Shown here: positions 11,029 through 35,124 of the stretch, piece by piece
Layout of the letters: every line of letters begins with the position of its first letter
Numbering within the stretch: position 1 is the first letter of the stretch
Assembly: GCA_016214565.1 (NCBI GenBank)
Contig: JACROE010000002.1
Span: 1,048,007-1,112,006, forward strand
Length of the DNA: 64,000 bases
DNA from: Candidatus Kerfeldbacteria bacterium
GTDB taxonomy: Bacteria > Patescibacteriota > Patescibacteriia > UBA10025 > JAHIVO01
Reading direction: 5' to 3'
Made by a program: the position numbers and the translations under genes
The notes under the pieces: model-generated
What the model saw: the letters and a program-made list of their open reading frames with translations, nothing else
The model's database searches: none
Told to the model about the DNA's origin: nothing

Positions 11029-13170
11029 TTAACGAATTGATAAAACAAATTTGCTAAATTGATCGCCGCGATCAAATTCATTTTGAAACATACCGAAACT
11101 TGCCGCGCCTGGTGATAGTACAACTGGGTATCGACCCACGGATTTTTCCTGTGCAACTTGAATAGCTGCTTGCATCGAATGAACGGTCGTACATTGATAA
11201 TATTTTTTCTTTCGTAGTAACTGGTTAATTTTGTCTGAAGCGGAACCAGACAACAATATGCACCAAACTGCGTGCTGGCGTATTGTTTTCACAAACTCAT
11301 TAAAATCCAATCGCTTATCAGCGCCACCGGCGATCAGTACAACTTTCGAGTTGATTGATTTCAGTGTGGCTATAGCAGCGTCTGGAATAGTCGCGGTCGT
11401 ATCATTGATATACGCTACACCCTGTATTTCGCGAATGACCTCCATCCGGCCTGACAAACCGTGAAACGCAATAACCGCTTTTCGAATAATGGTATGTGAC
11501 ACACCAGAAATTCGCGCAGCCGCTATGGCCGCCAGAATATTTGATACATTATGAGCACCACGAAGTCCACAATCAGATAACCGCATAACTTCAGACAAAA
11601 CACCATTAATGCGCACAAATATGGCTCTTTTATGAACAAATACGGCGTGCTGCTCGTTAATTGATTTACGAGAAAACCACATGCGCTTGCCAGGCACTTC
11701 TCTTCCCCACATCCGAGTCGTGGGATCATCATAGTTCAAGATCGTCCAATCGTCCTGGCTTTGAAATCTAAAAATATTCTTTTTCGCATTATGGTAGCCG
11801 ATGACCGTTTTATGACGATTCAGATGATCATGCAGAATATTAGTTACTACGGCAATCGGTGGGCTGTGCCGTGCCTGCGCGCTATCCTCGAGCTGAAAAG
11901 AAGACAGCTCCAGTACCGCGGTACGACTACTAATTGTTTTTGAAAGCAAATCAAACGGTGAAATACGAATATTACCCCCAAGCAACGGTCGTTTCTTCGC
12001 GTGCTTAAGTATTTCATAAATCAATTGCGTCACTGTGGACTTGCCCTTCGTCCCAGTCACCCCAATGATTGGCGACTTACTCAAACGATAGAAAATACTT
12101 AATTCATTTTCGACGGGCACTTGTGCTTGATGAGCCGCTTTAATGTAAGGTGAATAATTTGGCACGCCAGGATTTTGGATTACTAAGTCAGTATGAGTAA
12201 AATCCCTCATTTGATGCTTGCCAAGCACGTACGTAATATTTTTCTTTGGTAACCGTTTGATTGATGCGGCTAGAATTTTGCGCGATCGTAAGTCAGTTAC
12301 GATAACGTGTGCACCACGCTTATGCGCCCAACGCGCCGCTGCTATTCCACCGCCGTGCAATCCTAATCCCATCACTGTTACCCGCTTTCCTTTCAGCCTT
12401 AGATCAGGGCCGATCCATTTATAAATAATGTCTTTTATTAAAGTTAATTGTTTTTTCTCACGAAATGTGTGCGGTGCATCTGGTATGAGGACAAACTTTT
12501 TTTGGCAGGTAAGGCGTTGATAGAGTTTAAAAACATGTTCTGCAGGAGTACTGTCATCTTTTTCTCCGACAATCAATAAAGTCGGCATAATTAAACGCTT
12601 TGCCTGAGGCAACACATCATATCGTAAACGATCTTCCATATGAGACCATTTTAATCGTTTGATTAACCCAGGTTTGCTTTTGCTGTATTTGATAAGCCAG
12701 CCTGTTCTTTCCCATTGAACATATTCCCTCTTCTTTTCAACGCGTGAGATACTCAGCTTGCCTGATACTACAGGAGATATGGGTATCAGTGATGCTACCT
12801 GCTCAGGATATCGTTGAGCATATAAAATTGAACAGATACCGCCAAGCGAGTGCCCGGTCAGCCAGAATGGCTGCTGAAACCAAGGCTGCGTCCGTGCCCA
12901 CTTAATAACATCTTCTAAATCTTGGTAATAATTAGTGACCGTCGCATTTTCATACGCCCCTCCGCTTTCACCCACACTATTTGTTGTATCAAAACGAACG
13001 ACCGTAAAATTTCGTTCATAAAATGTTTTCGCTACCAGCTCAATATGCTTTTGCTCTTTAAAACCACCCAATCCGTGCATAACAAAAACCAACCCACGGG
13101 CTCGAGGGTTGATCTGGATGAGCGTAACTAGGCGCAAACCATGCCGATTACGAATAATTTTCTTTACCAT
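11029..13170 (-). CDS. murD: fusion protein: N-terminal alpha/beta-hydrolase domain + UDP-N-acetylmuramoylalanine--D-glutamate ligase MurD
   Basis: 713 aa in one continuous ORF. Residues 1-250 carry the HGLGGF oxyanion motif and the GHSLGG nucleophile elbow. The rest is MurD: LKGKRVTVMGLGLHGGGIAAARW Rossmann N-terminus and the GVTGTKGKSTVT P-loop. No stop or alternative start lies at the junction. Confidence 0.8.
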   Translation of the reverse strand: MVKKIIRNRHGLRLVTLIQINPRARGLVFVMHGLGGFKEQKHIELVAKTFYERNFTVVRFDTTNSVGESGGAYENATVTNYYQDLEDVIKWARTQPWFQQPFWLTGHSLGGICSILYAQRYPEQVASLIPISPVVSGKLSISRVEKKREYVQWERTGWLIKYSKSKPGLIKRLKWSHMEDRLRYDVLPQAKRLIMPTLLIVGEKDDSTPAEHVFKLYQRLTCQKKFVLIPDAPHTFREKKQLTLIKDIIYKWIGPDLRLKGKRVTVMGLGLHGGGIAAARWAHKRGAHVIVTDLRSRKILAASIKRLPKKNITYVLGKHQMRDFTHTDLVIQNPGVPNYSPYIKAAHQAQVPVENELSIFYRLSKSPIIGVTGTKGKSTVTQLIYEILKHAKKRPLLGGNIRISPFDLLSKTISSRTAVLELSSFQLEDSAQARHSPPIAVVTNILHDHLNRHKTVIGYHNAKKNIFRFQSQDDWTILNYDDPTTRMWGREVPGKRMWFSRKSINEQHAVFVHKRAIFVRINGVLSEVMRLSDCGLRGAHNVSNILAAIAAARISGVSHTIIRKAVIAFHGLSGRMEVIREIQGVAYINDTTATIPDAAIATLKSINSKVVLIAGGADKRLDFNEFVKTIRQHAVWCILLSGSASDKINQLLRKKKYYQCTTVHSMQAAIQVAQEKSVGRYPVVLSPGAASFGMFQNEFDRGDQFSKFVLSIR

Positions 13171-14759: not shown

Positions 14760-15161
14760 CTATAACGTGTTCTGACGCATAATCAAGTAACTGGCAACAA
14801 CTAACAGAACCTGACAGGCAAGAGAAAAACTAAGTTGTAATCGAGACAAAATAAAAGACTTTTTATGAAGCTGCCGGGCAAAAATTATATTAAGTATCAT
14901 GATGCCAGTACCTATTGCCGGCATCAAAAAAATTCTGTACCATTGGCCAACAAGGTCTACCCCAAAGTAAATGTTATAATGTAAGTACATAACCTCTTCA
15001 TACGGGCTGACGACCAATGCCAGGTATATCCACTGACCAACATTAAATGCCAATCCGGCTGCAATAAGCAGAACCGAAACCCGATCGCGAGAAAGAAATG
15101 GGTCGCGCCGTGAAACTAATCGCTTGAGTAGTGAAACAATATGCATTATCGTAAAATTCAA
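14760..15161 (-). CDS. membrane protein, hypothetical
   Basis: 133 aa with 3-4 TM helices. Its start region overlaps the divergent GT39 gene start. The real start may be Met6 at 15146. Confidence 0.4.
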   Translation of the reverse strand: MNFTIMHIVSLLKRLVSRRDPFLSRDRVSVLLIAAGLAFNVGQWIYLALVVSPYEEVMYLHYNIYFGVDLVGQWYRIFLMPAIGTGIMILNIIFARQLHKKSFILSRLQLSFSLACQVLLVVASYLIMRQNTL

Positions 15162-16925
15162 ATACTTGCAGTTATACTATTGCTAGGCGGAATGCTCGCA
15201 CTAGAGATATCATCTATTCGTTTAGAAACACAGACAACAGATGAAGGGGCGCATTTAGCAGCAGGCTACAGTTACTTAGCAACGGGCGATTTCCGTCTCA
15301 ATCGAGAGCACCCGCCGTTGATCAAGGAGTTAGCAGCGCTACCGCTGTATCTGATACATCATTCTCTAAATCAGCCATTTAATTCACAAGCTTGGAGAGC
15401 GTCAGATCAATGGCTATTTGCGAAAAACTTTTTATATTATAATCGAATTTCTGCTGATACGCTATTTTTCCTCGGGCGCCTACCGATCATGTGCCTGAGT
15501 CTACTGCTTGGCTGGTGGATATTCCGTTGGACCAAAGAAATGTTCGGCACGCCAAGCGCTTTTATTGCGCTTATATTTTACGTACTTGACCCTACTATTA
15601 TTGCGCATAGTCGGTATGTTACGACCGATCTGGCCTTGACGCTCTGCTTCTATATCACCATATATTATTTCTATAAATACCTCAAGTTTGGCCAAGTGCG
15701 CTGGTTAATTGGTTTTTGGGTGGTTTTTGGCATTGCCCAAGCGAGCAAGTATTCTGCAATTTTTCTTATTCCAATTATCCTAATCATGTATTTTTTGAGT
15801 TTATGGCGATCGCATGAACTAAGGGTACAGCAAACAGTGAAGAACTTTTTTCTGCTATTCGGCGGCATGGCGGCCGTGACCATAATGATACTCTCGGTAG
15901 TATACGGTTTTCAGGCACCAAAATTGATTGATGACATTTCTGTTCAAAAACTTCTTAATAAGCGCGAAGTTTTGATTGTTACTGATCAAGTAAAAAACCA
16001 GGACGTTTTAATCCAAAAAATTATTTCTCTAGCTGATCCTGCTTCTAAAAGCGGGAAAATAGTTTCTTCATTGATGCAATCAGTACCCATTCCATTTCTC
16101 CCGTATTTTGACGGATTGATCCAGGTGTACTTCCATGATTACTTTGGCCACACTTCCTACCTAATGGGAAACCATGCTGAATTTGGCTGGTGGTATTACT
16201 TTCCAGTTGCAGTCGCAATCAAAACACCAGCTATTACCTTGGTGGGACTAGCTGCGGTCATTTTATTCGGAGTGTATCGAGCTGTCCAAACGCTCAAAAC
16301 AACACGTTCTATAAAAAAAATGTTTGCACGCGTTCCTATTCATTTCTATTTTTTAATTCTACCACCGTCGATATTTTTTCTGATTAGTATGAATGGTAGT
16401 TTAAATCTCGGAATACGGCACGTACTTGTCATTTATCCATTTATTTTTAGTATTTTAGGGTGGGCTATTTACCGATTTTGGACAAACACTGGCTGGTTTC
16501 CGCGATTATTAATTATTATTGGCATGAGTTTGTACATACTTTCTTCAATAACAATTTTCCCCAACTACTTATCATATTTTAACGAATTTATTGGCGGGTC
16601 AAAAAATGGATATCGATATCTTGTCGATTCAAACAACGATTGGGGTCAGGATGTTAAAAAACTAAAAACATATTTACGGAAACATAATATACCATATGTT
16701 TGCATGGCATACTTCGGGCAAACAGAGTTAAATTATTACGGCATTGATTATCGGTATTTGCCGGATAATCAACATTTTACTTCAACAGACAACCTTAACT
16801 GCGTCGTCGCAATTAGCATCACCGCACTGTACTCAAAGGAAGGCGAATACGCTTGGTTGCAAAAATATTCACCAAATACGACGATTGGATACTCAATTCA
16901 TTTGTATGACTTTCGAAAACCCTAG
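15141..16925 (+). CDS. GT-C fold glycosyltransferase, GT39/GT83 (PMT_2/ArnT-like) family
   Basis: 594 aa with >10 TM helices. A DE motif lies in the first extracytoplasmic loop (TDEGAHLAAGYSYL), typical of polyprenyl-phosphate-sugar dependent GT-C enzymes (PMT/ArnT). Confidence 0.7.
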   Translation: MHYRKIQILAVILLLGGMLALEISSIRLETQTTDEGAHLAAGYSYLATGDFRLNREHPPLIKELAALPLYLIHHSLNQPFNSQAWRASDQWLFAKNFLYYNRISADTLFFLGRLPIMCLSLLLGWWIFRWTKEMFGTPSAFIALIFYVLDPTIIAHSRYVTTDLALTLCFYITIYYFYKYLKFGQVRWLIGFWVVFGIAQASKYSAIFLIPIILIMYFLSLWRSHELRVQQTVKNFFLLFGGMAAVTIMILSVVYGFQAPKLIDDISVQKLLNKREVLIVTDQVKNQDVLIQKIISLADPASKSGKIVSSLMQSVPIPFLPYFDGLIQVYFHDYFGHTSYLMGNHAEFGWWYYFPVAVAIKTPAITLVGLAAVILFGVYRAVQTLKTTRSIKKMFARVPIHFYFLILPPSIFFLISMNGSLNLGIRHVLVIYPFIFSILGWAIYRFWTNTGWFPRLLIIIGMSLYILSSITIFPNYLSYFNEFIGGSKNGYRYLVDSNNDWGQDVKKLKTYLRKHNIPYVCMAYFGQTELNYYGIDYRYLPDNQHFTSTDNLNCVVAISITALYSKEGEYAWLQKYSPNTTIGYSIHLYDFRKP

Positions 16926-16939
16926 ATAAATGGGGTACT

Positions 16940-16968
16940 TTGACGAAAGTGAGTTTTTCTGCTATATT
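16940..16968 (+). promoter_or_regulatory. sigma70-like promoter of pilus operon
   Basis: TTGACG (16940-45), a 17-nt spacer, then TGcTATATT as an extended -10 (16963-68). GGAGG sits at 16981-85, 15 nt before the pilB ATG. Confidence 0.5.
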
Positions 16969-17000: not shown

Positions 17001-18728
17001 ATGATATCAAACGAAGAAATTAAAAAGATACTCGCAACGTCGAACGTGATCCCCGAGGATCAGTTAAAACAGGCTTTGCAAAAAAATGCTACAGAGGGCG
17101 GCGGGATCATCGAGTATCTGATTAGTAAAAACATCGTTTCGGAAAACGTTTTATACGAAGCGATTGGAAATTATTATAAAATCCCTTTTATTGACCTGCG
17201 GCGGTTATCCATCCGGAAGGATATCTTGACATTGATTCCGGAGACAATTGTTCAAACGTACCAAATAGTCGCTTTTGATCAATCTGAAACAGAACTCAAA
17301 GTTGGTACTACCGACCCAAAAAATTTACAAATAATTGAATTTCTCAAAAAAAAGACAGGTCTTCGCATCAAGGTACACGTCACCACCCCCTCAAGCATCA
17401 AAGAAGTGGCCACTCAATTCCACAAAGGCCTTTCATCAGAGTTCAAAAACATTACCAAAGGGGACGTCGCCCTAAAAGAAGGTGAAGAAAATTTACAACA
17501 ACTTGCACAAGACCTTCCTATTGTCCGAATTGTTGATACGCTGCTTGAGTATGCAATATTTGAAGGCGCGTCAGATATTCATATCGAACCAACCGATAAG
17601 GACATCATGGTTCGATATAGAGTTGATGGTGTGCTTCGTGAAGCGATGCGATTACCAAAAAATTTACAACCCGGTGTTACCGCTCGTATAAAAATATTAT
17701 CAAACCTCAAAATTGATGAACACCGCCTTCCTCAAGACGGTCGATTTAAGATCGCCACGTCCGAATATAAAATATCATTTCGCGTTTCTATTATACCTGT
17801 CTTTGATGGCGAAAAAATCGTCATGCGTTTACTCAATGAATCGTCAAAATCACTTTCACTTGAGCAGATCGGCTTTCAGCTTAAGGCGCTGGAAATTGTT
17901 CAGGCCAATGTGCTAAAACCGCAAGGAATGCTCCTCGTCACCGGGCCAACCGGAAGCGGTAAAACGACAACGCTGTACACATTAATGTCACTGCTCAATC
18001 GACCAGAAGTAAACATTTCGACAATTGAAGATCCCGTCGAATACCGGATGCCTCGGATAAATCAAAGTCAAGTTAACCCAAAAATTGGATTTACCTTTGC
18101 TGCTGGATTGCGTTCACTCTTACGACAAGATCCGAATATTATTATGGTCGGAGAAATTCGCGACAACGAAACTGCGCAAATTGCAACTCATGCGGCGCTA
18201 ACCGGACACTTAGTACTTTCTACTTTGCACACGAACGATGCTGTTACGACACTCCCCCGTCTCGAAGAAATGGACGTTCCACGGTTTTTAATTGCTTCTA
18301 CAACCAACGTTGTTATTGCACAGCGACTTGTGAGAAAAATTTGCTCAGGGTGCATCCAAAGTTACACACTTTCAAAAAAGGCTATCTTGGATTTAGAAAA
18401 AAAGTTCGATTTAAAGGCTATTTTGAAAGTTTTGGAAACTCAGGGAATTATTCAGTCTGCTGAAGTTCCAATAGAATCCCTCCTTTTTTATAAAGGCAAG
18501 GGTTGCAAACAGTGTGGTAATAGCGGATATAAAGGACGCGTTGGAATTTTTGAGGTTTTAGAAATTACCAAAAAAATTGCTAAAATGATCGTTGATCATG
18601 AACCGGTTCCGGTTATTTTAAAAGCGTCGATTGATGATGGCATGTTAACTATGATGCAAGATGGATTTATAAAAGCAAAAAATGGAGTTACCTCGATTGA
18701 AGAAATATTAAGAGCCACCCAAGAATAA
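17001..18728 (+). CDS. pilB: type IV pilus assembly ATPase PilB (GspE family)
   Basis: 575 aa. It has an N-terminal GspE_N (T2SSE_N) domain, a Walker A GPTGSGKTT, Asp/His boxes, and a tetracysteine motif (CSGC...CKQCGNSGYKGR). Confidence 0.9.
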   Translation: MISNEEIKKILATSNVIPEDQLKQALQKNATEGGGIIEYLISKNIVSENVLYEAIGNYYKIPFIDLRRLSIRKDILTLIPETIVQTYQIVAFDQSETELKVGTTDPKNLQIIEFLKKKTGLRIKVHVTTPSSIKEVATQFHKGLSSEFKNITKGDVALKEGEENLQQLAQDLPIVRIVDTLLEYAIFEGASDIHIEPTDKDIMVRYRVDGVLREAMRLPKNLQPGVTARIKILSNLKIDEHRLPQDGRFKIATSEYKISFRVSIIPVFDGEKIVMRLLNESSKSLSLEQIGFQLKALEIVQANVLKPQGMLLVTGPTGSGKTTTLYTLMSLLNRPEVNISTIEDPVEYRMPRINQSQVNPKIGFTFAAGLRSLLRQDPNIIMVGEIRDNETAQIATHAALTGHLVLSTLHTNDAVTTLPRLEEMDVPRFLIASTTNVVIAQRLVRKICSGCIQSYTLSKKAILDLEKKFDLKAILKVLETQGIIQSAEVPIESLLFYKGKGCKQCGNSGYKGRVGIFEVLEITKKIAKMIVDHEPVPVILKASIDDGMLTMMQDGFIKAKNGVTSIEEILRATQE

Positions 18729-18736
18729 AAAATACT

Positions 18737-19957
18737 ATGGCAGAATACCAATATACCGCCAGAACACCTGAAGGAAAACTAGTAAAAGACCGAATGCGAG
18801 CAAAAAGTACAGATGCGCTTGCAGACGATTTGAAAAATAAGGGTCTTATTCTTACTCAAGCCAAGGAAATGAGGCCAGGTGGAGGCACTAATTTTTTTCA
18901 GTCAATGATGAATTCAATGAGCGGTGTGCCAATAGTCGACAAAATATTTTTTACGCAAAACTTGTCGATTATGGTGAAAACTGGCTTTTCATTATCTCAA
19001 GCGCTAAAGACGCTTTCGGCACAAACATCAAATAAGAAATTTAAGGGCATCATTGATGATATTCGAAGCGACGTGGAGAGCGGCGCAGCTTTGTCAAACT
19101 CACTTCAGCGTTTTCCTAAAGTATTTCCCGAAATTTTTGTAAACATGATATCGGCTGGTGAAGCCAGCGGTAAGCTCGATGAAATATTAATTACGCTGAC
19201 GAATCAAATGAAAAAAGATCATCAGATTGTCAGCAAAGTTCGCGCAGCACTGACGTATCCCTCTATAGTCATTTTTGCCATGATTGTGATCGGCGTAGTC
19301 ATGATGGTTACCGTCGTCCCCCAGCTACTTTCAGTATTTGACGAGTCCACCACTGAATTGCCGGTGACTACAAAGATATTGGTTGCTTTTAGCGACCTGC
19401 TGAAAAATTATTTACTGTACGTAGTCGGCTTCGTCGCTGTTCTCGCAGTAGCATTTCTTCGCTTTCGCAAAACGAAGTCAGGGAAAAAATTAATTCATGC
19501 TACCATTTTGAAATTGCCGCTTATTTCTCCAGTGGTAAAAAAAGTTAATTTAGCCCGTTTTACTCGAACACTCAGCTCTTTGCTCAAAACTGATATTCCC
19601 ATTGTTCAAACTATGCAGATTATTTCAAAAGTATTGGGCAATGTGCATTACAGCAATGCAGTACTCATCGCCTCAGAACAAGTGAAAAAAGGTGTTAGTA
19701 TTGTAAAAACGTTAGAAAATGAATCAAAACTTTTTCCGCCAATTGTCACTCAAATGATTAGTGTCGGTGAGGAAAGCGGTACTCTGGATAGTATTACTGA
19801 AGAAATTGCTGATTTTTACGAAGAAGATGTGGATCAAACATTGAATACGCTTTCCAGTGTAATTGAACCTATTCTTATGCTTTTTATCGGAGGCGCTGTT
19901 GCTTTTCTAGCCTTATCAGTATTGCAACCTATGTATGGATTGGTCGAGGCGATTTAA
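18737..19957 (+). CDS. pilC: type IV pilus platform protein PilC (GspF family)
   Basis: 406 aa with two T2SSF repeats and 3 TM helices. Confidence 0.85.
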   Translation: MAEYQYTARTPEGKLVKDRMRAKSTDALADDLKNKGLILTQAKEMRPGGGTNFFQSMMNSMSGVPIVDKIFFTQNLSIMVKTGFSLSQALKTLSAQTSNKKFKGIIDDIRSDVESGAALSNSLQRFPKVFPEIFVNMISAGEASGKLDEILITLTNQMKKDHQIVSKVRAALTYPSIVIFAMIVIGVVMMVTVVPQLLSVFDESTTELPVTTKILVAFSDLLKNYLLYVVGFVAVLAVAFLRFRKTKSGKKLIHATILKLPLISPVVKKVNLARFTRTLSSLLKTDIPIVQTMQIISKVLGNVHYSNAVLIASEQVKKGVSIVKTLENESKLFPPIVTQMISVGEESGTLDSITEEIADFYEEDVDQTLNTLSSVIEPILMLFIGGAVAFLALSVLQPMYGLVEAI

Positions 19958-20909
19958 TACACAGACGTACACCTCATCTGGTTTTAGCATTATTGAATCT
20001 GTTGTTACCATTGGATTAACCAGCATTCTTATCATATTGTTTGGTGCAACGTACACCGCCACTACGACTGACCGCTACCTCCATCACCGCTCACTCGCAT
20101 ATATCGCAGCAGCGGAGGAGCTTGAAATTATTCGCAATACTGATTTTGACACTCTCGATACACGAACAAACGCTCCCTTCATCGGCGTAGCGTACACTCA
20201 GGGTACCTGGACCGTAGAAACACTAGCGTCTCCGCCAAGTGGAACTCATGTACTTACTGTGGTACCCAACGCTTCCTACACCCCGGCGAGTCAAATATTT
20301 ATTCCTGAATTTGGCTATAAAAACTTTGACTTTTCGAGCTCATTTATGGTCAATAATAGTTCAGGAAATGGCTGGTCGGTATACTATTTCTATCGCTACC
20401 AAGACCCACAAAACTATTACTCCCTAAACATCACGAGTACCCAAGCGGTTTTGGAAAAAAAAGTTGCTGGTGTAACCAGTCAACTAGGAACCACGAGTCA
20501 CGTTTTTTCAAAAAATTCTTGGTACACATTAGCCGCAAGCGTTACGGATGGCACTTTTACCATTACGCTTGATGGCTCCCCCCTGGTAACGGGTACTGAT
20601 GCCCAAAATGAACTAACCAAAGGCAAGCTTGGCTTTGGGGGGAATGCCCAAACGCGTATGTATTTTGATTCAGTCTCAATCACTGGACTCAATACCCACA
20701 GTTATAATTTCGACAGCGATACATCAGGAAGCCTTCCTGACCAATGGCAGCGCTACGGCGTACCCCAGCTACCCAGCGCAGCTGGTTTGCTAACGATTAG
20801 CCATCCGGATCCACTTTTTGATGATTTAAAAGCTGTAACCGCGCAGGTTACCTGGTCAGAACGTGGCGCTACAAAAAGTGTTGAACTATCTACTTTAATC
20901 TCACCTTAA
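19935..20909 (+). CDS. modular type IV pilin with C-terminal LamG/ConA-like lectin domain
   Basis: Class III signal: leader MDWSRRFNTQTYTSSG, then mature FSIIESVVTIGLTSILIILFG with Glu at +5. The C-terminal ~170 aa match laminin-G/concanavalin-like patterns (W..L...TDGTFT..LDG.......NELTKGKLGFGGN....YFDSVSI). Overlaps the pilC stop by 23 nt. Confidence 0.75.
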   Translation: MDWSRRFNTQTYTSSGFSIIESVVTIGLTSILIILFGATYTATTTDRYLHHRSLAYIAAAEELEIIRNTDFDTLDTRTNAPFIGVAYTQGTWTVETLASPPSGTHVLTVVPNASYTPASQIFIPEFGYKNFDFSSSFMVNNSSGNGWSVYYFYRYQDPQNYYSLNITSTQAVLEKKVAGVTSQLGTTSHVFSKNSWYTLAASVTDGTFTITLDGSPLVTGTDAQNELTKGKLGFGGNAQTRMYFDSVSITGLNTHSYNFDSDTSGSLPDQWQRYGVPQLPSAAGLLTISHPDPLFDDLKAVTAQVTWSERGATKSVELSTLISP

Positions 20910-20912
20910 GCC

Positions 20913-21461
20913 ATGAATTTGCAGGAATTGCTCGTCACTCTCATTATCGTTGTTATAATCTTTAGCATTGTTTTTGCTTCGTATTTGACGTACATCAATG
21001 TGTACAAAGTGCAACTCGTACGAAATACGCTTTCGACCGAACTCAGCCGCATCTTTGCAGTCAGTACGAAATCAGTTCGCGGCGCTACCGAAGTAGTCGC
21101 GAGCCTCACCATAGGTGGGAATACATATACAACCGGCTCTCATACAGTAATTGTTAAATCACCTGCTATCGATGCGAATGATTTGATAGTCAACAACGCG
21201 TACGACTACTTTATTCTTACTAGCCCAGTTGGTACTCCTAATTCCTTAGTGATGATCACAGAGGCCGACCCAGCCAGTGCACGAAGCTCAACCACGACAA
21301 CCCTTACGACTCATCTCAGTTCATTACAAATTAACTACGATTCAGAAACAACGGTGGACATCTCCCGCGTAGAATTAATTCTTTCCCTGAGCCAATTTGC
21401 CGCAAATCGGACAATAACAAACACTGGCCAATCGACTATCTTTTTAAGAAACTCACCGTAG
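20913..21461 (+). CDS. pilin-like protein with non-canonical N-terminus (ComGG-like minor pilin?)
   Basis: 182 aa. Hydrophobic N-terminal helix MNLQELLVTLIIVVIIFSIVFASYL without the G-F-x-x-x-E signature. Thr/Ser-rich C-terminus. Embedded among pilin genes. Confidence 0.5.
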   Translation: MNLQELLVTLIIVVIIFSIVFASYLTYINVYKVQLVRNTLSTELSRIFAVSTKSVRGATEVVASLTIGGNTYTTGSHTVIVKSPAIDANDLIVNNAYDYFILTSPVGTPNSLVMITEADPASARSSTTTTLTTHLSSLQINYDSETTVDISRVELILSLSQFAANRTITNTGQSTIFLRNSP

Positions 21462-21463
21462 CT

Positions 21464-23245
21464 ATGCCGGCACAACGCGGACAAACAATTATTATAGTCA
21501 TTATATTTATCTCGGTATTTTTAACTATTGGAGCGACGTTGTTTGCTCAATCAAATAACACCCGTCAAATAGTACAGCGCCAAGCCGTACTAGAAAAAGC
21601 TCGTAACATCGCTGAAGCAGGCATTGCAAAAGCTACCTGGTGCTTAAATAACCCCACCGAATGCAGTAGTCCCTATACCGGCGAAACGACAACTTTTGAC
21701 AATGGCCAATTTAGCACTACATTAACGTCTGTTGGATTAAGTTATCGTATCGTCTCAACTGGTACCTATCTTTCTGTTACAAAAGTTGTGACTGAAGAAA
21801 TTACTCAGCAATCAGTTTCTTCCGGTGCATCCTTTTTTTATGGCGTTCAAGTCGGAGCCGGTGGATTAGACATGGCTAACAATAGTTATGTCAATGGTAA
21901 CGTATATTCCAATGGTTCAATTACAGCGGGTAATGGGGCATACGTCACTGGCGATGTCTATGTAGCAGGCGGAACTGCCCTTGCAACAAACCAAGAACAA
22001 ACAACAACTACATCTGATTTCCCCTTCGGGCAGGCGAGCCCCAATCCATCAGACATCGCCCAGAGTTTCAAAACAAATATTTCAGAGGTGGTTAATAAAG
22101 TAAGTCTATATTTAAAAAAGGTTGGGTCTCCTGGAAATGCTACTGTTCACATATACTCCGACAATTCCGGAAACCCAGGCACTTCTTTAACCAGCGGCAC
22201 ACTTAGTGCAAGCCTAGTCACCACAAGTTACGGTTGGGTTGATGTAACCTTTAACACCAATCCACAACTTACTGCCGGAACAACTTACTGGGTTATTGTT
22301 GACGGTGGCAGTCGGAATGACCGCTATTACATTTCTGGCAAAACCACAGATACTGCATATACAAATGGTACGGGTAAATCGAGTACTAACCTCAGCAGTT
22401 GGACGAGTGCCAGTGGCGACTTTACGTTTAAAATTTGGCTCGGCGGCATAGTCACTTCTATCAACGGATTACAAATTGGTGATAAAGGGCACACGTGCGA
22501 TAACGGCCACTATGCCACACACCATGGCAATGCCTACGCTCATCGCATCCTGAATAGCTGGGTTGAATGTGACGCTTTTTTTACTGCTGACCCCGGTGAT
22601 ATTACCGGAACCACGGTGGGTAGAACAAAGCATGCAAATAGCACGGATCCTGCTCCTGAAAATATGCCCGTATCTGATGGTCAGATCACTGAATGGAAAT
22701 CGATTGCAGAAGCAGGAGGAACTATTACGGGCGACTATACTCTTACTAATTTTGCGACTGCTACCCTTGGCCCAACAAAGATTACAGGAAATATGTTAAT
22801 CGATAACGGGGCTCAATTAACTATCCGTGGGACGATTTGGGTGTCAGGTACGATTACGTTAAGCAATGGGGCGGTTATCTCGCTTGACCCAGGCTATGGA
22901 GCAACCAGCGGCATCGTCGTAGCTGATGGTAAGATTAATGTTAATAACAACTGTGTTTTTAATGGTTCTGGTACTTCAGGCAGCTATATTATGTTTTTGA
23001 CTACCAGTAGCACGCTCGACAATGATATTATAATAAGCAATAACGCTGAAACTGTTATTTTTTACGCCGGTAATGGTATGATAAATGTGTCCAACAATGC
23101 CGCCTTAAAAGAAGCAACTGCGTATAAATTATACTTATCCAACGGCTCCACCGTGTCATATGAATCTGGATTGGCCAATGCGTCTTTCGCAAACGGCCCC
23201 GGCGGCATATGGACTACCAGTAAAACTAATTGGCTCGAATTGTAG
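21464..23245 (+). CDS. PilX_N-domain minor pilin with large C-terminal beta-helix-like repeat region (putative tip adhesin)
   Basis: 593 aa. The N-terminus MPAQRGQTIIIVIIFISVFLTIGATLFA matches the PilX N-terminal pattern (RGQ + TM). Further on there are Gly/Asn-rich repeats (NGNVYSNGSITAGNGAYVTGDVYVAGG; NNNCVFNGSGTSGSY) and a Cys/His-rich segment (GHTCDNGHYATHHGNAYAH). Confidence 0.65.
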   Translation: MPAQRGQTIIIVIIFISVFLTIGATLFAQSNNTRQIVQRQAVLEKARNIAEAGIAKATWCLNNPTECSSPYTGETTTFDNGQFSTTLTSVGLSYRIVSTGTYLSVTKVVTEEITQQSVSSGASFFYGVQVGAGGLDMANNSYVNGNVYSNGSITAGNGAYVTGDVYVAGGTALATNQEQTTTTSDFPFGQASPNPSDIAQSFKTNISEVVNKVSLYLKKVGSPGNATVHIYSDNSGNPGTSLTSGTLSASLVTTSYGWVDVTFNTNPQLTAGTTYWVIVDGGSRNDRYYISGKTTDTAYTNGTGKSSTNLSSWTSASGDFTFKIWLGGIVTSINGLQIGDKGHTCDNGHYATHHGNAYAHRILNSWVECDAFFTADPGDITGTTVGRTKHANSTDPAPENMPVSDGQITEWKSIAEAGGTITGDYTLTNFATATLGPTKITGNMLIDNGAQLTIRGTIWVSGTITLSNGAVISLDPGYGATSGIVVADGKINVNNNCVFNGSGTSGSYIMFLTTSSTLDNDIIISNNAETVIFYAGNGMINVSNNAALKEATAYKLYLSNGSTVSYESGLANASFANGPGGIWTTSKTNWLEL

Positions 23246-23247
23246 CA

Positions 23248-24324
23248 ATGTCAATATTTAACTACAATCATTTCAATAACCTAATCGGATTAGATATTAG
23301 TGATTCTAAAATTCGCTTTATTCAATTTCGCCAAAGCGGGAAAAATAAATATCGAATTATAAGCTTCAGCGAAAAATCAATTCCTCAAGATTTAATTCGA
23401 TCAGGTACGGTCAGTAACCCCGATGCAGTTACAAAACTTTTGGTTTCAATGGTAAAAGAGCCTGATTATGGAAAACTGCAGTCAAAATTTGTAAACTTCT
23501 CAGTTCCTGAAAAAAGATCATTTGTGAAGGTTGTTACCGTCCCGTTAGTACCATCTGATGAACTAGCGGGAACTGTTCGCTGGGGAATTGAACAAAACAT
23601 TCCAGTTAATATCAACGAAGTCCAATACGATTGGCACGTCGTCAAAAGCTCACCGTCCCTCGCCAAAGATAAAATGCAGTGCATGGTTGCAGTCAGCCCA
23701 AAAAATATTATCGATGGCTACGCAGATATTGTTACCCGAGCTGGTTTGGTGCCCATTTGTGCAGAAAATGAATCTGTTGCAATTTCACGGTCTCTTATTA
23801 ACACCAAAACAAATCCCGATGCGTCGATTATGATTATTGACCTTGGCAGAAGCCGAACTAATATTATTATATTTCACAATGACGCAGTTCAATTTTCATC
23901 ATCGATTGAGGTAAGTGGAAATGAAATGACTCGAGCGGTTGCCCATAAATTATCTTTATCATTTGAAGATGCTGAAAAAATTAAAATACTATACGGCCTT
24001 GATTACCACAAAGGTCGCGGACAGATAAAATCTGTACTTGAACCACTCATGGCACAATTAGTCAACAAACTGAAGGAGTACGTCCAATATTACAGCGAGT
24101 ACATGCTCGGGAAAAAATCGATAACGCAGGTTTTGCTTACTGGCAATGTAGGCAAATTATCAGGAATTCAGCAATATTTGGCTGCTCAATTAAACATTCC
24201 GATATCGATTGGCGACAGCTACACAAATATTCGCGTACTCAAGTCACACGATGAACACATTGCTAAACTTAACACGGCCTCTTATTCAACAGCGATTGGT
24301 CTGGCTTTGAAAAAAATACTATGA
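23248..24324 (+). CDS. pilM: type IV pilus assembly protein PilM (actin-like ATPase)
   Basis: Actin/FtsA-like fold, with LIGLDISDSKIRFIQF as the phosphate-1 motif. The ATG at 23248 sits 2 nt after the upstream TAG. The track's 23230 start is a TTG inside the previous gene. PilN follows via an ATGA overlap. Confidence 0.8.
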   Translation: MSIFNYNHFNNLIGLDISDSKIRFIQFRQSGKNKYRIISFSEKSIPQDLIRSGTVSNPDAVTKLLVSMVKEPDYGKLQSKFVNFSVPEKRSFVKVVTVPLVPSDELAGTVRWGIEQNIPVNINEVQYDWHVVKSSPSLAKDKMQCMVAVSPKNIIDGYADIVTRAGLVPICAENESVAISRSLINTKTNPDASIMIIDLGRSRTNIIIFHNDAVQFSSSIEVSGNEMTRAVAHKLSLSFEDAEKIKILYGLDYHKGRGQIKSVLEPLMAQLVNKLKEYVQYYSEYMLGKKSITQVLLTGNVGKLSGIQQYLAAQLNIPISIGDSYTNIRVLKSHDEHIAKLNTASYSTAIGLALKKIL

Positions 24325-24884
24325 GCCTATACCCTGGGGTGAACCTATTATCTCGCATGCAGAAAAAGCAAATTCAGCTGGAATGGTATGGTTTTGTATC
24401 AAAAAACATACTATTTATTACGGTTAGCGTATTGGCGATCACCAGTATTGTCATAATATTTTCGATTACTTTATTAGATAATCAAGCAAATAATTTAGAT
24501 GCCCAAATAGAAGATGAGCGTATCATTAAAGAAGATGGAAAGCTGTCAACCATCAACGATGCCACTGCAACGCTTAATACCACTATTGAACGTGTTCGCT
24601 CAATTCAGAAAAACTATATAAGTTGGACCGATTTTCTTACTACATTTTCAACACTTATTCCAAAGGATATTACTATCAATTCTATTTCGATTGTGGGGAA
24701 AAATCAGGAAATAAACATTTCAGGAAGCGCCCCTACTCGCGAGTCGTACCAAAATTTGTTAAAAGCATTGGAGTCAACCCCCCTGCTTTCAAATGTCCAA
24801 TCTCCTATATCAAATCTTGTACAACGAGAAAATATAACTTTTGCCATCACCGCTCAAATAACGCCTGAGGAATTGTATGAATAA
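24321..24884 (+). CDS. pilN: type IV pilus assembly protein PilN
   Basis: 187 aa, single N-terminal TM helix (ILFITVSVLAITSIVIIF), coiled coil, in PilM-N-O order. Confidence 0.7.
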   Translation: MSLYPGVNLLSRMQKKQIQLEWYGFVSKNILFITVSVLAITSIVIIFSITLLDNQANNLDAQIEDERIIKEDGKLSTINDATATLNTTIERVRSIQKNYISWTDFLTTFSTLIPKDITINSISIVGKNQEINISGSAPTRESYQNLLKALESTPLLSNVQSPISNLVQRENITFAITAQITPEELYE

Positions 24885-25389
24885 GTTTTTGAAGTACAAA
24901 CAACTATTGATTTTTGGTGGCAGCGCATCAATTGTGTTGATAGTGACTTTAGTATTATTTGTTATTCCTCAGCTACACGAAATATCCGAAGCAAAAACGA
25001 GTATACATGACAAGCGCGTTCAGCTCGAAATTTTGAAACGAGAACGATCCAATATCGAACAAACGCAGCGAGAACTTTCGAGTATTGAAGAAAATATTAA
25101 AGACTTAGAAAAAATATTTATTGATGGGGAGGAAGTGCTTAATCTTATTTCCGCATTGGAAACAGTCGCTGAAGATAATGGCGTTGAACAAGAATTGGCA
25201 TTACTCGGAGAACCAACACAAAATACATTTAGCATGAAATTAACTATTTCCTGCACGTGGGCTGAGTGTTTGAATTATTTATCAATCCTCGAGCAACTTG
25301 ATCAGTATGTCAGCTTAAGCGATCCTCTCATAACGAGGGTTAATAGTCGCTTGACCATGAGTTTTAACGCGTATGCATATACCAAATAG
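24877..25389 (+). CDS. pilO: type IV pilus assembly protein PilO
   Basis: 170 aa with a single TM helix, a coiled coil (KRVQLEILKRERSNIEQTQRELSSIEENIKDLEK), and its position after pilN. Confidence 0.65.
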   Translation: MNKFLKYKQLLIFGGSASIVLIVTLVLFVIPQLHEISEAKTSIHDKRVQLEILKRERSNIEQTQRELSSIEENIKDLEKIFIDGEEVLNLISALETVAEDNGVEQELALLGEPTQNTFSMKLTISCTWAECLNYLSILEQLDQYVSLSDPLITRVNSRLTMSFNAYAYTK

Positions 25390-25681
25390 TAAACAACTTT
25401 TTCAGCAATACTCTGTTTCAATAGTTTTTTGGCTGAAGCGTCATATTGCCCTGGCAGTAAACAGTGTAGTATTAATACTTTTGATTATTTTGGCTCAATT
25501 TATTTATACAAACGTTTATCTGAGCGTTATTAATCCAGAGCCAATCGATCAAACCGAAATAATTGCTCGCCGCAAAAAAGTCAACACTACGGAGTTCGAA
25601 ACTGCTCTCAATCAAATACAGCAAAAACAGACGCCGACAGATGGACGCGTCTTTAAGGAAATTGCCAATCCTTTTGACTAG
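25373..25681 (+). CDS. small membrane protein (possible PilP-like accessory), hypothetical
   Basis: 102 aa, one TM helix (AVNSVVLILLIILAQFIY). Last gene of the pilus operon. Overlaps the pilO end. Confidence 0.45.
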   Translation: MHIPNSKQLFQQYSVSIVFWLKRHIALAVNSVVLILLIILAQFIYTNVYLSVINPEPIDQTEIIARRKKVNTTEFETALNQIQQKQTPTDGRVFKEIANPFD

Positions 25682-25687
25682 CTCATC

Positions 25688-25716
25688 TTGACAAGCTTGA
25701 ACATACCCGATATATT
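25688..25716 (+). promoter_or_regulatory. sigma70-like promoter upstream of rpmA
   Basis: TTGACA (25688-93), a 17-nt spacer, then TATATT (25711-16). A ~60 nt leader precedes the rpmA start. Confidence 0.5.
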
Positions 25717-32390: not shown

Positions 32391-33116
32391 CTAGGAATCA
32401 GCTTTCTGCTGTTCACGCGCGGCGATATAATTCCCCGCCTCGAGCAGTGAATCAAAAGTACCGGCGTCAAACCATTTTCCCTCAATAACACGCACGTCAA
32501 GTTCGCCAAGCTCTAAATACCGTTTATGCAATTCCGTTATTTCAATCTCTCCGCGAGCCGAGGGGACGACTTCCTTTGCAAATTGTGAAACACGATTATC
32601 AAAAATGTAGAGCCCAGGAATAGCATAGTCGCTGATCCACTGCTGTGGCTTTTCTACAATTTGTATAACTTTTTTATGTTCATCAAACTGTACAACGCCT
32701 AAACGCTCAGGATCTGGAACTTTTTTTGCAAAAATACGGCCACCCTTCTTAAATGACTGTAGTGCCTCGGTAAAATTATCCTCAAAAATGTTGTCCCCCA
32801 ATATCATTGCCACTGAATCATTATTCAAAAAATCTTCGCCAACGATAAATGCATCAGCAAGACCTCGTGGAGTTTCTTGTATCTCATAGGTAAATTTCGC
32901 GCCAAATTCCTTGCCCGATCCGAGCAAATGCAAAAAATGACCAGCATACTCAGGCGCTACAATAATCAATATTTCTTTAATGCCTGCCTGTAGTAACGTT
33001 TCGAGCGGATAGTAAATCATCGGTTTATTATAAACCGGAAGTAGCTGTTTACTAGTTATTTTGGTGAGTGGTCGAAGCCGAGTCGCCCGGCCACCAGCTA
33101 GGATAATGCCTTTCAT
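32391..33116 (-). CDS. rfbA: glucose-1-phosphate thymidylyltransferase
   Basis: MKGIILAGGRATRLRPLT... is the G-G-x-G-T-R-L motif. 241 aa, short RmlA-type. Confidence 0.85.
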   Translation of the reverse strand: MKGIILAGGRATRLRPLTKITSKQLLPVYNKPMIYYPLETLLQAGIKEILIIVAPEYAGHFLHLLGSGKEFGAKFTYEIQETPRGLADAFIVGEDFLNNDSVAMILGDNIFEDNFTEALQSFKKGGRIFAKKVPDPERLGVVQFDEHKKVIQIVEKPQQWISDYAIPGLYIFDNRVSQFAKEVVPSARGEIEITELHKRYLELGELDVRVIEGKWFDAGTFDSLLEAGNYIAAREQQKADS

Positions 33117-33120
33117 ACAA

Positions 33121-33681
33121 CTAAGAATTACTCATGGTAAAAGGAAATTCACGGCCGGAAAGCGGCTCTAGTGCCGCATCTTTATCTGACAAAATTGCAT
33201 CAGACATTGGCCAATCAATGTGCAACGTAGGGTCATTCCATATGATACCACTATCGTATTCTGGTGCATATGGATTGTCCACTTTGTAGAGGAATTCAGT
33301 ATGTGGCTCGAGCGTCAGAAAACCATGAGCAAAACCGCGTGGAATGTACAGCATGTTAAAATTCTCGGCTGATAATTCAAATGATTCCCATTGGCAAAAG
33401 GTTTCCGAATCTTTCCGAAGATCAACAATAACATCAAAAACTTTTCCCGCTGTTACCCGGACGAGCTTTGCTTGAGTAAACGGTGGAAGCTGAAAATGTA
33501 AACCACGGAGTATCCCGGCGGATTTTGAAAATGAATGGTTGTCTTGAACGAACGCTCGGGTGATTCCATGCCGGACAAACGTACTCTGAAAAAAAGTCTC
33601 CAAAAAAAATCCGCGTTCATCTTGAAATACTTTTGGAATGATAAGCCAGGCGTCTTTAAATTTTGTAGGTTTAAATTCCAT
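33121..33681 (-). CDS. rfbC: dTDP-4-dehydrorhamnose 3,5-epimerase
   Basis: 186 aa cupin. RGLHFQ and HGF motifs. Confidence 0.85.
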   Translation of the reverse strand: MEFKPTKFKDAWLIIPKVFQDERGFFLETFFQSTFVRHGITRAFVQDNHSFSKSAGILRGLHFQLPPFTQAKLVRVTAGKVFDVIVDLRKDSETFCQWESFELSAENFNMLYIPRGFAHGFLTLEPHTEFLYKVDNPYAPEYDSGIIWNDPTLHIDWPMSDAILSDKDAALEPLSGREFPFTMSNS

Positions 33682-34519: not shown

Positions 34520-35124
34520 GGTACCAATTTTTCAATCGAATGGTTAGTCAGAAGCTGCAACTCTTCATGGATTGCCGCCAACCGCTCAACGCTTTTGCCA
34601 TACTGAGCAAACCGATGATAAGCCCGACGAAATGATCCAATGTGCCTACCTTGTTTTGCAGAATAGGTATTTCGCGCGTCAGCATAGGCCAGAATTTTCT
34701 CCTCAATGCTCGTCGGAAAAAAATCTCTACCAATAAATTTGTATTGCTTGCACACACGTGCATCAAGACCGGTTCCACCCATGTGCACAATACATACTCG
34801 TGCGAGTTTTTCTCCATACCCTTTACGCTTCACCAATCGGTATCCGATAAACGCATGATATGTGGCGTCCATCAATTCCACAGACGCTTTGCTTCCGGTT
34901 ACCATACGGCCGATGTCGTGCACCATGCACGCCACTTTCAAAAAGTGACGGTCAACGGGGATGCCCCGTTTCGTCAAAATTTTCGCTATTCGATCAGCAA
35001 ATTTCCAATTCAATAATGAATGGCTCCAGGTATCGCGAGCTTGTTGAGGAATATGGTGTTCGCGAGCCAATCGTGTCATCCATTTTCGAATCTCTGAAAG
35101 AGATGGTACTTTAGCGCTCTTCAT
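34516..35124 (-). CDS. HD-domain phosphohydrolase
   Basis: H...HD motif (ACMVHDIGR). The start is trimmed to the Met at 35124 (MKSAKVPS...) to avoid a 92-nt overlap with rfbB. Embedded within rfbB-rfbDCA. Confidence 0.65.
   Translation of the reverse strand: MKSAKVPSLSEIRKWMTRLAREHHIPQQARDTWSHSLLNWKFADRIAKILTKRGIPVDRHFLKVACMVHDIGRMVTGSKASVELMDATYHAFIGYRLVKRKGYGEKLARVCIVHMGGTGLDARVCKQYKFIGRDFFPTSIEEKILAYADARNTYSAKQGRHIGSFRRAYHRFAQYGKSVERLAAIHEELQLLTNHSIEKLVP

Follow-up and report, generated by a model that had tools for sequence, protein, structure and literature searches.

What do three consecutive pilin-like genes of a Candidatus Kerfeldbacteria (Patescibacteria) genome contribute to a type IV pilus, and could the non-pilin modules that they encode serve attachment to another cell? 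The genes occupy positions 19935-23245 of the window, by which we mean the whole 64-kb stretch of DNA analysed; coordinates below refer to it and the operon features lie on its + strand. They are translationally coupled within an operon of the order pilB-pilC-(three pilin genes)-pilM-pilN-pilO, recognised as a type IV pilus operon by the first-pass annotation and borne out as such by the Pfam and NCBIfam matches of the neighbours: the PilB-type assembly ATPase (17001..18728; T2SSE, E = 3e-126, plus MshEN), the PilC platform protein (18737..19957; T2SSF, E = 1.8e-55), whose gene overlaps the first pilin gene by 23 nt, PilM (23230..24324; PilM_2, E = 1.3e-44; TIGR01175, 169.7 bits), PilN (24321..24884; Pfam PilN, 28.7 bits for a cut-off of 22.8) and PilO (24877..25389; Pfam PilO, 27.8 bits for a cut-off of 22). 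The last gene (25373..25681) encodes a 102-aa protein without a family match in Pfam or NCBIfam, whose hydrophobic stretch was read as a single transmembrane segment; a 92-aa gene takes its position in a syntenic related locus (L001). A sigma-70-like promoter motif with TG, TTGACG-17-TATATT (16940..16968, +), lies upstream of pilB and gives a weak, consensus-only hint of the operon start, and a second such motif (25688-25716) precedes the L27 gene past the operon end. The same window also holds a very large gene cluster for the biosynthesis of surface polysaccharide, with rmlABCD among its genes.

As had been noted previously, no canonical small major pilin is present in the operon, nor did motif scans and Pfam searches find a small major pilin, PilD or PilT in the 64-kb window (the four final ORFs that reach 100 aa, at 60835-63992, being covered by motif scans only; for PilD, the 64 kb searched belong to a genome of 1.1 Mb). 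Because these components are absent from the 64 kb, pilin processing and filament formation are assumptions here. The ORF limits of the three genes were confirmed as 19935-20909 (324 aa), 20913-21461 (182 aa) and 21464-23245 (593 aa). Their Gly+Ala+Ser+Thr content reaches 36-43% compared to 23-28% in the machinery proteins, which is, as judged from composition, a signature of exported pilins (criterion of PMC11623550).

The 324-aa protein (19935..20909) starts with the prepilin signal MDWSRRFNTQTYTSSG|FSIIE, in which Glu occupies mature position 5. The short polar leader ends with Gly and gives way to a hydrophobic segment of some 20 aa, and the G-[F]-S-I-I-E type motif occurs only once in the window. 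In agreement with the class III signal proposed earlier, the columns of G16 (Gly-1) and E21 (Glu5) are at least 90% conserved among 55 full-length homologues, of which 19 match Pfam N_methyl, a family that the 324-aa protein itself reaches only below the cut-off (11.3 bits). The leader (aa 1-16, with predicted cleavage after G16), the mature FSIIE N-terminus and helix alpha1 (aa 17-76) are encoded by 19935..20162. The AF2 model (pLDDT 93.9) contains a helix at residues 19-68, a beta-sandwich and strands at 283-289, 299-309 and 312-322, in line with the structure check suggested by the first-pass annotation; the predicted structure thus has the lollipop pilin fold, a long N-terminal helix on an antiparallel beta-sheet. 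The family profile matches pilin N-termini of the PDB (E = 7e-5 to 3e-3).

Where does the lectin module sit in this protein? It had been placed in the C-terminal ~170 aa; the ConA-like fold holds, the position does not. The sandwich spans residues ~77-269 (20163..20741), and residues ~270-324 (20742..20906) form pilin-core beta-strands, as supported by the AF2 strands, BLASTP and an HMM segment. Orthologues of only 125-175 aa, found at 41 loci, align exclusively to HMM positions 4-69 and ~262-316; with a short homologue of 124 aa, the N-terminal part of the 324-aa protein aligns at 97% probability in hhalign and the C-terminus at 40% identity in BLASTP (E = 8e-8). Sequence and model together indicate that the lectin module interrupts a small minor pilin, at a position predicted to be its alpha-beta loop. 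We place this pilin in the GspI/PilV class; the I and J assignments go by protein size, by the order of the genes and by the number of strands rather than by a search with the folds of the pilin cores.

The lectin-fold search proposed earlier returned a significant match, to PF06439 (DUF1080) and CBM66, and left the lectin proposal standing. PF06439 scored marginally in the 324-aa protein (27.0 bits for a cut-off of 26.8) and matched 28 of the 55 family members, whereas the family profile hit CBM66 in the PDB with E = 6.6e-16. Profile comparison therefore confirms a predicted ConA-like fold far above chance level; the module is a beta-sandwich (jelly-roll), and its nearest match in both sequence and structure is CBM66, a non-catalytic binding module. 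The expected PF13385 family (Laminin_G_3) was not recovered, its score being 21.3 bits versus 27.6, and Laminin_G_2 was also sub-threshold (17.9 bits versus 22.9). Nevertheless, 20 of the 55 homologues match laminin G at E < 1e-3, which places the module in the same superfamily although laminin G is not its best family. In the alignment with CBM66, the shared residues resemble, in our reading, motifs of the fold core more than a binding site; glycan binding is a candidate function of the module.

The 182-aa protein (20913..21461), which we assign to the GspJ/PilW slot, lacks a leader: it starts directly with M-N-L-Q-E5-L-L-V, and no in-frame start codon is found upstream of the ORF. It is nonetheless 27% identical (E = 4e-15) to a normally led orthologue at a related locus (L002), 28 of its 40 orthologues match Pfam N_methyl, and its family profile matches PDB pilin N-termini. 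Three pilin genes had been noted by the first-pass annotation, which overlooked that they form an I-J-K set, that this pilin is leaderless and that the next one carries a jelly roll.

The 593-aa protein (21464..23245) is a cap pilin of the GspK/PilX class. Its N-terminus, MPAQRG|QTIIIVIIF, has Ile and not Glu at position 5 past the Gly; among 51 homologues, 43 keep this Gly, which are all those that align at this point, and 26 have the GQ pair. The model (pLDDT 86.9) comprises an N-terminal helix (aa 4-62) and a four-stranded pilin sheet (aa 73-115; together 21464..21808), a pilin core that superposes on GspK, to which a bulky non-pilin beta-solenoid is joined. The N-terminal part of the solenoid (aa 128-196; 21845..22051; Gly+Asn 28%) is followed by a jelly roll (aa 197-326; 22052..22441), recognised as NCBIfam choice_anchor_R (choice-of-anchor R) with 46 bits for a cut-off of 30 and a second candidate binding module, and the C-terminal part covers aa 420-565 (22721..23158). 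The earlier description as a PilX_N protein with beta-helix-like repeats was right as to a PilX/GspK-like pilin with a beta-solenoid, but not as to the Pfam family: PilX_N (PF14341) gave no match at E <= 1, and among the matches listed a precomputed one occurs in 2 of 120 homologues. The Cys/His-rich insert also described at that time is indeed present within the solenoid (HTCD-x3-HYATHHG-x-A-x-AH...EC; 22475..22579). It is clade-specific: only the closest homologues keep the motif (about 15 of 17), and 32 of the 51 proteins of the wider family lack the segment. The insert may be a metal site or a disulfide.

Both the three-gene module and the family of the 593-aa protein occur widely among Patescibacteria, and the latter is conserved full-length at 35-60% identity in many lineages. 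Contiguous I-, J- and K-like genes, whose order and sizes fit I-J-K, were found in the window as well as at 80 related Patescibacteria loci, 13 of which carry the CBM66-type insert and 41 a short I-type pilin without it. In many Paceibacteria-type loci a fourth pilin gene, of ~150 aa, lies upstream, where an H-like subunit would sit; it is missing in the window and its closest relatives, in which PilC lies directly 5' of the I-like gene.

Taken together, these results suggest, with a probability of roughly 0.6, that the three genes encode an I-J-K tip and priming complex showing glycan-binding modules for host attachment. The set would be the core minor-pilin set, equivalent to GspI-GspJ-GspK or PilV-PilW-PilX. 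The K-type subunit, which could be placed only at the very top since it has no Glu5, would cap the filament with its solenoid and jelly-roll bulk, and the I-type and J-type subunits would sit below it via their hydrophobic N-terminal helices. Such a ternary complex, on the PilC/PilM/PilN/PilO platform, would prime the PilB-driven polymerisation of a major pilin assumed to be encoded elsewhere in the genome, outside the window; a trimer that primes polymerisation would be located at the pilus tip, and type 4 filaments are known to be capped by HIJK complexes (10.1101/2022.08.25.505150). The tip would then show two non-pilin modules, the CBM66/ConA-like sandwich of the I-type and the choice-of-anchor-R jelly roll of the K-type subunit, and the most plausible ligand of both would be polysaccharide on the surface of the cell, host or partner, on which this ultrasmall bacterium lives. 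Lectin-like minor pilins and host glycans matter in host binding by TM7x (PMC11623550). With predicted sugar-binding or adhesin-like domains on two of three tip-type pilins, the complex is a candidate, though not an unprecedented one, for how ultrasmall epibionts grip host cells.

Could the tip rather serve DNA uptake, with the K-type subunit as a ComZ-like DNA receptor and nucleotides or DNA scavenged via ComEC? We consider this competence reading unlikely. In structure, the K-type pilin is indeed most like ComZ, a DNA receptor rather than a glycan adhesin, but the likeness is one of fold alone, identity being only 18%. The absence of PilT near the operon counts for DNA uptake, and so would a general lack of nucleotide synthesis in Patescibacteria. 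The composition of the 593-aa protein argues weakly against DNA binding: it is net acidic, with 4.7% Lys+Arg compared to 12.7% in PilB, and the N-terminal part of its solenoid contains no basic residue. A competence-specific subfamily exists among the cyanobacterial solenoid PilX variants (10.64898/2026.02.12.705559); on the other hand, the dispensable pilus T4P-2 of TM7x has no effect on competence (PMC11623550), and DNA uptake would leave both the CBM66-like module of the I-type pilin and the CBM-like jelly roll unexplained.

It is rather improbable, too, that the modules act on the cell's own surface or secreted polysaccharide, for instance as a motility track, an idea taken from the cyanobacterial PilX-EPS (10.64898/2026.02.12.705559) with which the polysaccharide cluster containing rmlABCD would agree, or that the PF06439-type domain is a pilus-borne glycan-active enzyme. 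PF06439 is named for an enzyme family and annotated as '3-keto-disaccharide hydrolase', so that the module may be catalytic, but CBM66, the nearest match, is non-catalytic, no catalytic motif was noticed, and the presence of this domain type 11-13 times over in giant proteins is typical of binding repeats, not of enzymes. Least probable in our view is a purely structural role, in which the extra domains would cap or stabilise the tip or gate how it crosses the envelope (compare the plug role ascribed to PilY1) without any ligand. A plug role has been proposed for the cyanobacterial PilX solenoids (10.64898/2026.02.12.705559), and the short I-type pilin of 41 loci implies that the insert is dispensable for assembly; yet an insert that is dispensable but conserved where present, as in the 55 full-length homologues, suggests an added function, and both extra folds are classic carbohydrate-binding scaffolds.

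The glycan-binding tip complex can be set against several known systems. It resembles GspI-GspJ-GspK and PilV-PilW-PilX in its small, medium, large gene order and in having Glu5 in the first two subunits and not in the third. By contrast, GspI and PilV are not modular, GspK bears an alpha-helical insert instead of a solenoid, the J-type subunit has no leader peptide and the operon has no H/FimU subunit. CBM66 itself, from the Bacillus subtilis levanase SacC (PDB 4AZZ, 4B1L, 4B1M), binds fructans, particularly levan (cited in PMC8715580); it is an appendage of a GH32 enzyme, whereas the module studied here is built into a pilin.

The first-pass annotation had drawn a parallel with Gram-positive modular pilins. 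It is sound as far as a lectin-module pilin is concerned: PilC of Streptococcus sanguinis, which belongs with PilA and PilB to a tip complex of modular minor pilins and is an experimentally demonstrated lectin (10.1101/2022.08.25.505150), likewise combines a class III signal with a module of the ConA-like lectin/glucanase superfamily and is encoded in a pilus operon. The architecture of S. sanguinis PilB and PilC, a C-terminal graft, does not apply, as the Kerfeldbacteria module follows helix alpha1 and precedes the beta-sheet that completes the pilin core. Moreover, this module is of the CBM66/PF06439 type, S. sanguinis PilC is not among the PDB entries that the family profile matches by sequence, and for PilC a tip position next to a GspI-like partner has been proposed whereas here the module is on the assigned I-class subunit itself.

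The nearest precedents are not Gram-positive pilins alone: they include ComZ, PilX of cyanobacteria and, in Saccharibacteria, minor pilins with a likeness to lectins (PMC6561018; 10.64898/2026.02.12.705559; PMC11623550). ComZ of Thermus thermophilus (PDB 6QVI) combines, like the 593-aa protein, a GspK-like pilin fold with a large beta-solenoid, triangular and of the ice-binding-protein type; its N-terminus is non-canonical and its bulk fits nowhere but at the tip (PMC6561018). Besides its 18% identity with ComZ, the 593-aa protein differs in the additional jelly roll (aa 197-326), the Cys/His insert and its acidity, and the partner of ComZ is PilA2, not a lectin-bearing pilin. Cyanobacterial PilX-EPS and PilX-Com are cap pilins without Glu5 whose fold is interrupted by an ice-binding-like bulky solenoid, and they strictly co-occur with a dedicated PilV partner (10.64898/2026.02.12.705559); compared by description, they belong to another phylum and carry another inserted extra domain, and no lectin module is reported for their PilV, unlike the I-type pilin described here.

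Within Patescibacteria, the type IV pili of Nanosynbacter lyticus TM7x (Saccharibacteria) have PilX1 and PilX2, large minor pilins without a PilD-type signal. They carry lectin-like domains, namely a beta-propeller and a jelly roll similar to L-type lectins or CBMs, and are implicated in host binding via cell-wall glycans (PMC11623550). These modules are carried by X-type pilins and described as C-terminal domains; that study reports neither a solenoid nor a V/I-type pilin with an inserted lectin domain (PMC11623550). Since lectin-like minor pilins of Patescibacteria were thus already published, as were lectin-module pilins (S. sanguinis PilC) and solenoid cap pilins (ComZ, cyanobacterial PilX), the novelty implied by the first-pass annotation was too high. 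Whereas pilins are described as poorly conserved beyond Saccharibacteria (PMC11623550), the 593-aa family retains its 35-60% identity across many Patescibacteria lineages.

The three pilin-like genes lie in a compact operon, entirely on the plus strand, in which intergenic gaps do not exceed 8 nt and several genes overlap. Pfam and NCBIfam profiles identified PilB (17001-18728) and PilC (18737-19957) upstream of the trio and PilM (23230-24324), PilN (24321-24884) and PilO (24877-25389) downstream, the trio itself encoding proteins of 324 aa (gene 1, 19935-20909), 182 aa (gene 2, 20913-21461) and 593 aa (gene 3, 21464-23245). The products of genes 1 and 3 are 100% identical to HZC01_05285 and HZC01_05295, two hypothetical proteins of a Candidatus Kerfeldbacteria MAG. 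After PilO, the last gene of the operon (25373-25681, plus strand) encodes a protein of 102 aa that contains a hydrophobic stretch and has no family match; it could be PilP-like or another component of the alignment complex. Promoter-like motifs, weak and resting on a consensus match only, were found directly upstream of pilB and directly after the last gene. The gene arrangement is identical in a second Kerfeldbacteria genome (locus L001), where a 92-aa gene occupies the position of the 102-aa protein gene and where the flanking genes are also shared (MraY, a PMT_2 glycosyltransferase, L27 and CTP synthase). The PMT_2-family membrane glycosyltransferase (594 aa, 15141-16925) abuts pilB upstream on the same strand, as it does in L001 (1639-3444), and might have pilins or other surface proteins as glycosylation targets; a second, weak PMT_2 match was obtained at 40206-41876. 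Neither PilD, PilT nor a major pilin was found in the 64-kb window by motif scans of the whole stretch and by Pfam searches of the ORFs of 100 aa or more, up to the final four (60835-63992), which the motif scans covered.

A 713-aa protein (11029-13170), in which an N-terminal alpha/beta-hydrolase (Hydrolase_4 / S33-like) is fused to a complete MurD-type Mur ligase, is encoded in a dcw-like cluster (MurB, MurC-like, MurG, FtsW, MraY). At 32391-36265 and 42269-63992, genes for dTDP-rhamnose synthesis (RmlA, RmlC, RmlD and RmlB-like) adjoin a long surface-polysaccharide cluster with aminotransferases, hexapeptide acyltransferases, GT4 glycosyltransferases and a flippase, which takes up a big share of a small genome. 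ORFs 38455-40167 (570 aa), 48627-49748 (373 aa) and 56192-57811 (539 aa) had no Pfam match at E <= 1e-5, and no tRNA was found in the window.

The N-terminus of the 324-aa protein, MDWSRRFNTQTYTSSG/FSIIESVV..., is the sole canonical prepilin motif detected by motif scan in the 64 kb. Word-index searches with the 324-aa and 182-aa proteins returned only the queries or 2 weak matches, with no relatives for the former; for the 324-aa protein, an exhaustive HMMER scan recovered 424 relatives (E <= 1e-3), of which about 90 are full-length (300-345 aa, 25-40% identity). In an alignment of 55 full-length homologues, Gly(-1) at the cleavage site and Glu5 are conserved in at least 90%. The first-pass annotation had proposed a lectin-like fold for this pilin, and a lectin-like domain is well supported: the protein scores 27.0 bits against PF06439 (cut-off 26.8), this family matching 28 and Laminin_G_3 matching 20 of the 55 homologues, the family profile matches the CBM66 levan-binding module of the B. 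subtilis levanase with E = 6.6e-16, and the AlphaFold2 model has a pLDDT of 93.9. The module is also found in giant metagenomic proteins among the HMMER relatives, repeated 13 times in P0122 (3465 aa), 11 times in P0124 (3027 aa) and 4 times in P0155 (1787 aa); one of them has a terminal DUF1302 domain and another bears PhoD and He_PIG domains.

The position of the module proved to be different from the C-terminal one proposed earlier. In the model, a helix (19-68) is followed by the sandwich strands (77-257) and then by three strands of the pilin core (283-289, 299-309 and 312-322), and the N-terminal part of the family profile matches solved type IV pilins. Using a 17-sequence alignment as query, we fetched 80 Patescibacteria loci via relatives of the 593-aa gene; the taxon labels of several of these MAG loci ('uncultured Gammaproteobacteria' and 'Saccharibacteria' bins) look generic and were not relied on. 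The gene two upstream of the 593-aa homologue encodes a full-length 324-aa homologue (300-345 aa) at 13 loci and a short pilin (median 146 aa) at 41. These short pilins align to the family HMM at positions 4-69 and ~262-316 only, skipping the central ~190 positions; for one of 124 aa, the N-terminal match reached 97% probability (hhalign) and the C-terminal match 40% identity (E = 8e-8). The two-piece match and the strands of the model therefore indicate that the 324-aa protein is a minor pilin of GspI/PilV size whose loop connecting alpha1 to the beta-sheet contains an inserted CBM66-type module.

Regarding the 593-aa protein, more than 448 homologues were retrieved, nearly all full-length and at ~40% identity, those that are named being 'PilX' or 'choice-of-anchor R domain-containing protein' of Patescibacteria. 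Its relatives are encoded at 214 genome loci, and the family is conserved full-length at 35-60% identity in many Patescibacteria lineages. The model (pLDDT 86.9) comprises a helix (4-62), a four-stranded sheet (73-115) and a beta-sandwich (197-326), with short parallel strands typical of solenoids at 128-190 and 420-565. The sandwich corresponds to the jelly-roll domain choice_anchor_R of NCBIfam (46 bits, cut-off 30), for which likenesses to PHR and CBM jelly rolls and to tapirin adhesins are listed, and Foldseek matched the model to ComZ (E = 1.8e-3) as well as to proteins of phage baseplates or fibres and to CBM6. The conserved Gly is followed by QTIII, so that Glu5 is absent. The PilX_N domain assigned to this protein by the first-pass annotation was not recovered with the Pfam profile; the Cys/His-rich motif it described is real and is limited to about 15 close relatives. 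Of the 17 closest relatives, about 15 keep this motif, HTCD-x3-HYATHHG-x-A-x-AH...EC (22475-22579, aa ~338-372). In the wider family, the segment that contains it is missing from 32 of the 51 members. Another pair of Cys residues (WCLNN..EC, aa 60 and 67) occurs only in a subset of the same sort. From their sequence, these Cys and His residues possibly form a metal site or disulfides.

The middle gene differs by its N-terminus. A 188-aa orthologue at the related locus L002, with a normal leader (KKGF-VTLIE), shares 27% identity with the 182-aa protein (E = 4e-15); 28 of 40 positional orthologues match the N_methyl motif, their profile matches pilin N-termini in the PDB, and orthologues of other lineages have a normal leader and G/FTLIE. 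The 182-aa protein itself begins M-N-L-Q-E-L-L-V, and only one codon lies between its start and the upstream TAA. The corresponding pilins of four related genomes start with MTLADVLV, MSIQEVLV, MSLAETLV and MSLSEMLV, none having an in-frame upstream start codon, and the pattern M-x-[LI]-x-[ED]5-x-L-V is thus read from the initiator Met in the window (20913-21461) and at loci L001 (7452-7997), L004 (5440-5985), L006 (5448-5990) and L008 (5453-5998). A missed upstream start was rejected on these grounds. Since no in-frame upstream start exists in the five genomes, the middle pilin of this clade lacks a leader peptide and retains an acidic fifth residue, the initiator Met being the first. This arrangement suggests that the protein may enter the filament without cleavage by the prepilin peptidase; we know of no described case of a pilin entering a type IV filament without such processing, and a leaderless pilin, if confirmed, would inform how pilins are recognised for assembly. 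Where Ser or Thr occupies position 2, removal of the Met would move the register by one. Genes 1 and 2 share a reading frame and are separated by the TAA and one codon (20907-20915). A single read-through protein, or a split gene, was considered and rejected, because every gene 1 homologue ends at the same position and the TAA is thus a real stop.

Taken together, the order of the three genes, the sizes of their products (small core, medium and large), the presence of Glu5 in the first two and its absence from the third, and the GspK-like core of the latter agree with the set of core minor pilins GspI-J-K / PilV-W-X, the I and J classes being assigned solely by protein size, order of the genes and number of strands. 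In type 4 filaments, this set makes up the complex that sits at the tip or primes assembly (10.1101/2022.08.25.505150; PMC6561018; 10.64898/2026.02.12.705559). Many other lineages have a fourth pilin gene of ~150 aa before the trio, in the H position, which is absent from the window operon. Gly, Ala, Ser and Thr make up 36-43% of the three pilins compared with 23-28% of the machinery proteins, and richness in these residues has been used as a signature of exported pilins (PMC11623550). From the match and the composition, the trio probably primes filament assembly and remains at the pilus tip, which would display the CBM66-type module together with a jelly roll carried by a rigid solenoid. Attachment of these modules to a polysaccharide of a host or partner cell would be the most plausible function. 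In several Daviesbacteria-type loci (L033 4061-4942, L044 4075-5010, L050 4032-4946, L052 3314-4267, L054 4095-4973, L071 4072-4965 and L074 3992-4918), an additional, shorter protein (~290-317 aa) with a 'GQ' N-terminus is encoded directly upstream of the I-J-K trio and after another pilin gene set, which suggests two minor-pilin sets in tandem.

Other functions can be proposed for these domains. The similarity of fold to ComZ is the sole argument for the 593-aa protein being a DNA receptor for competence, a role that we find unlikely given its acidic, Lys/Arg-poor composition and the presence of two carbohydrate-module folds. The modules could also recognise the cell's own polysaccharide, for which the window holds a large gene cluster including rmlABCD, or the PF06439 domain could be enzymatic; the closest relative of the inserted module is non-catalytic, and we regard this explanation as slightly more doubtful still. 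Least probable to us is that the extra domains are purely a structural plug: the insert is absent from 41 of the 80 loci, so assembly does not need it, which points to an added function more than to a structural requirement. We propose, with a probability of roughly one in four, that the Patescibacteria I-J-K tip is a modular host-range device. A solenoid cap pilin common to the phylum would serve as the scaffold, with binding cassettes swapped in by individual lineages (here a CBM66-type lectin placed in the I-type pilin's alpha-beta loop, at 13/80 loci) to retarget the pilus to a new host glycan, and in the Kerfeldbacteria-related clade a leaderless J-type pilin, with the initiator Met as residue 1 and Glu/Asp at position 5, would enter the filament unprocessed by prepilin peptidase.

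To our knowledge, Kerfeldbacteria are uncultivated, and beyond a few cultivated Saccharibacteria there is little information on the ways in which ultrasmall Patescibacteria locate their hosts and hold on to them. The locus offers testable candidates, namely residues 77-269 of the gene 1 product and residues 197-326 of the gene 3 product, both small soluble domains that are expressible and usable on glycan arrays or as host-fishing probes. The cap pilin is conserved full-length in many lineages and therefore could mark the tip complex, and the lineage-specific lectin insertion could mark host specificity.

Targeted literature searches on Candidate Phyla Radiation pilins/ComZ and on 'choice-of-anchor R' found no paper that ties such pilins to ComZ or mentions 'choice-of-anchor R'. 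Nor did the literature consulted contain a description of a lectin module lying within an I-type pilin, as opposed to a C-terminal graft, of one solenoid and jelly-roll cap pilin conserved over many Patescibacteria lineages, or of a leaderless J-type pilin. The conservation of the 593-aa family contrasts with an earlier report of pilins as poorly conserved and too divergent to compare. Each single element already has a published precedent, so that the finding, though well founded and of use to experimenters, will not surprise a pilus specialist. PilC of S. sanguinis, a pilin with a ConA-like module shown by experiment to be a lectin, is the precedent for the module of the 324-aa protein, and ComZ and cyanobacterial PilX, both solenoid cap pilins, are those for the 593-aa protein. 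Within the Patescibacteria, lectin-like minor pilins are known from TM7x, whose PilX1 and PilX2 have been linked to host binding (PMC11623550).
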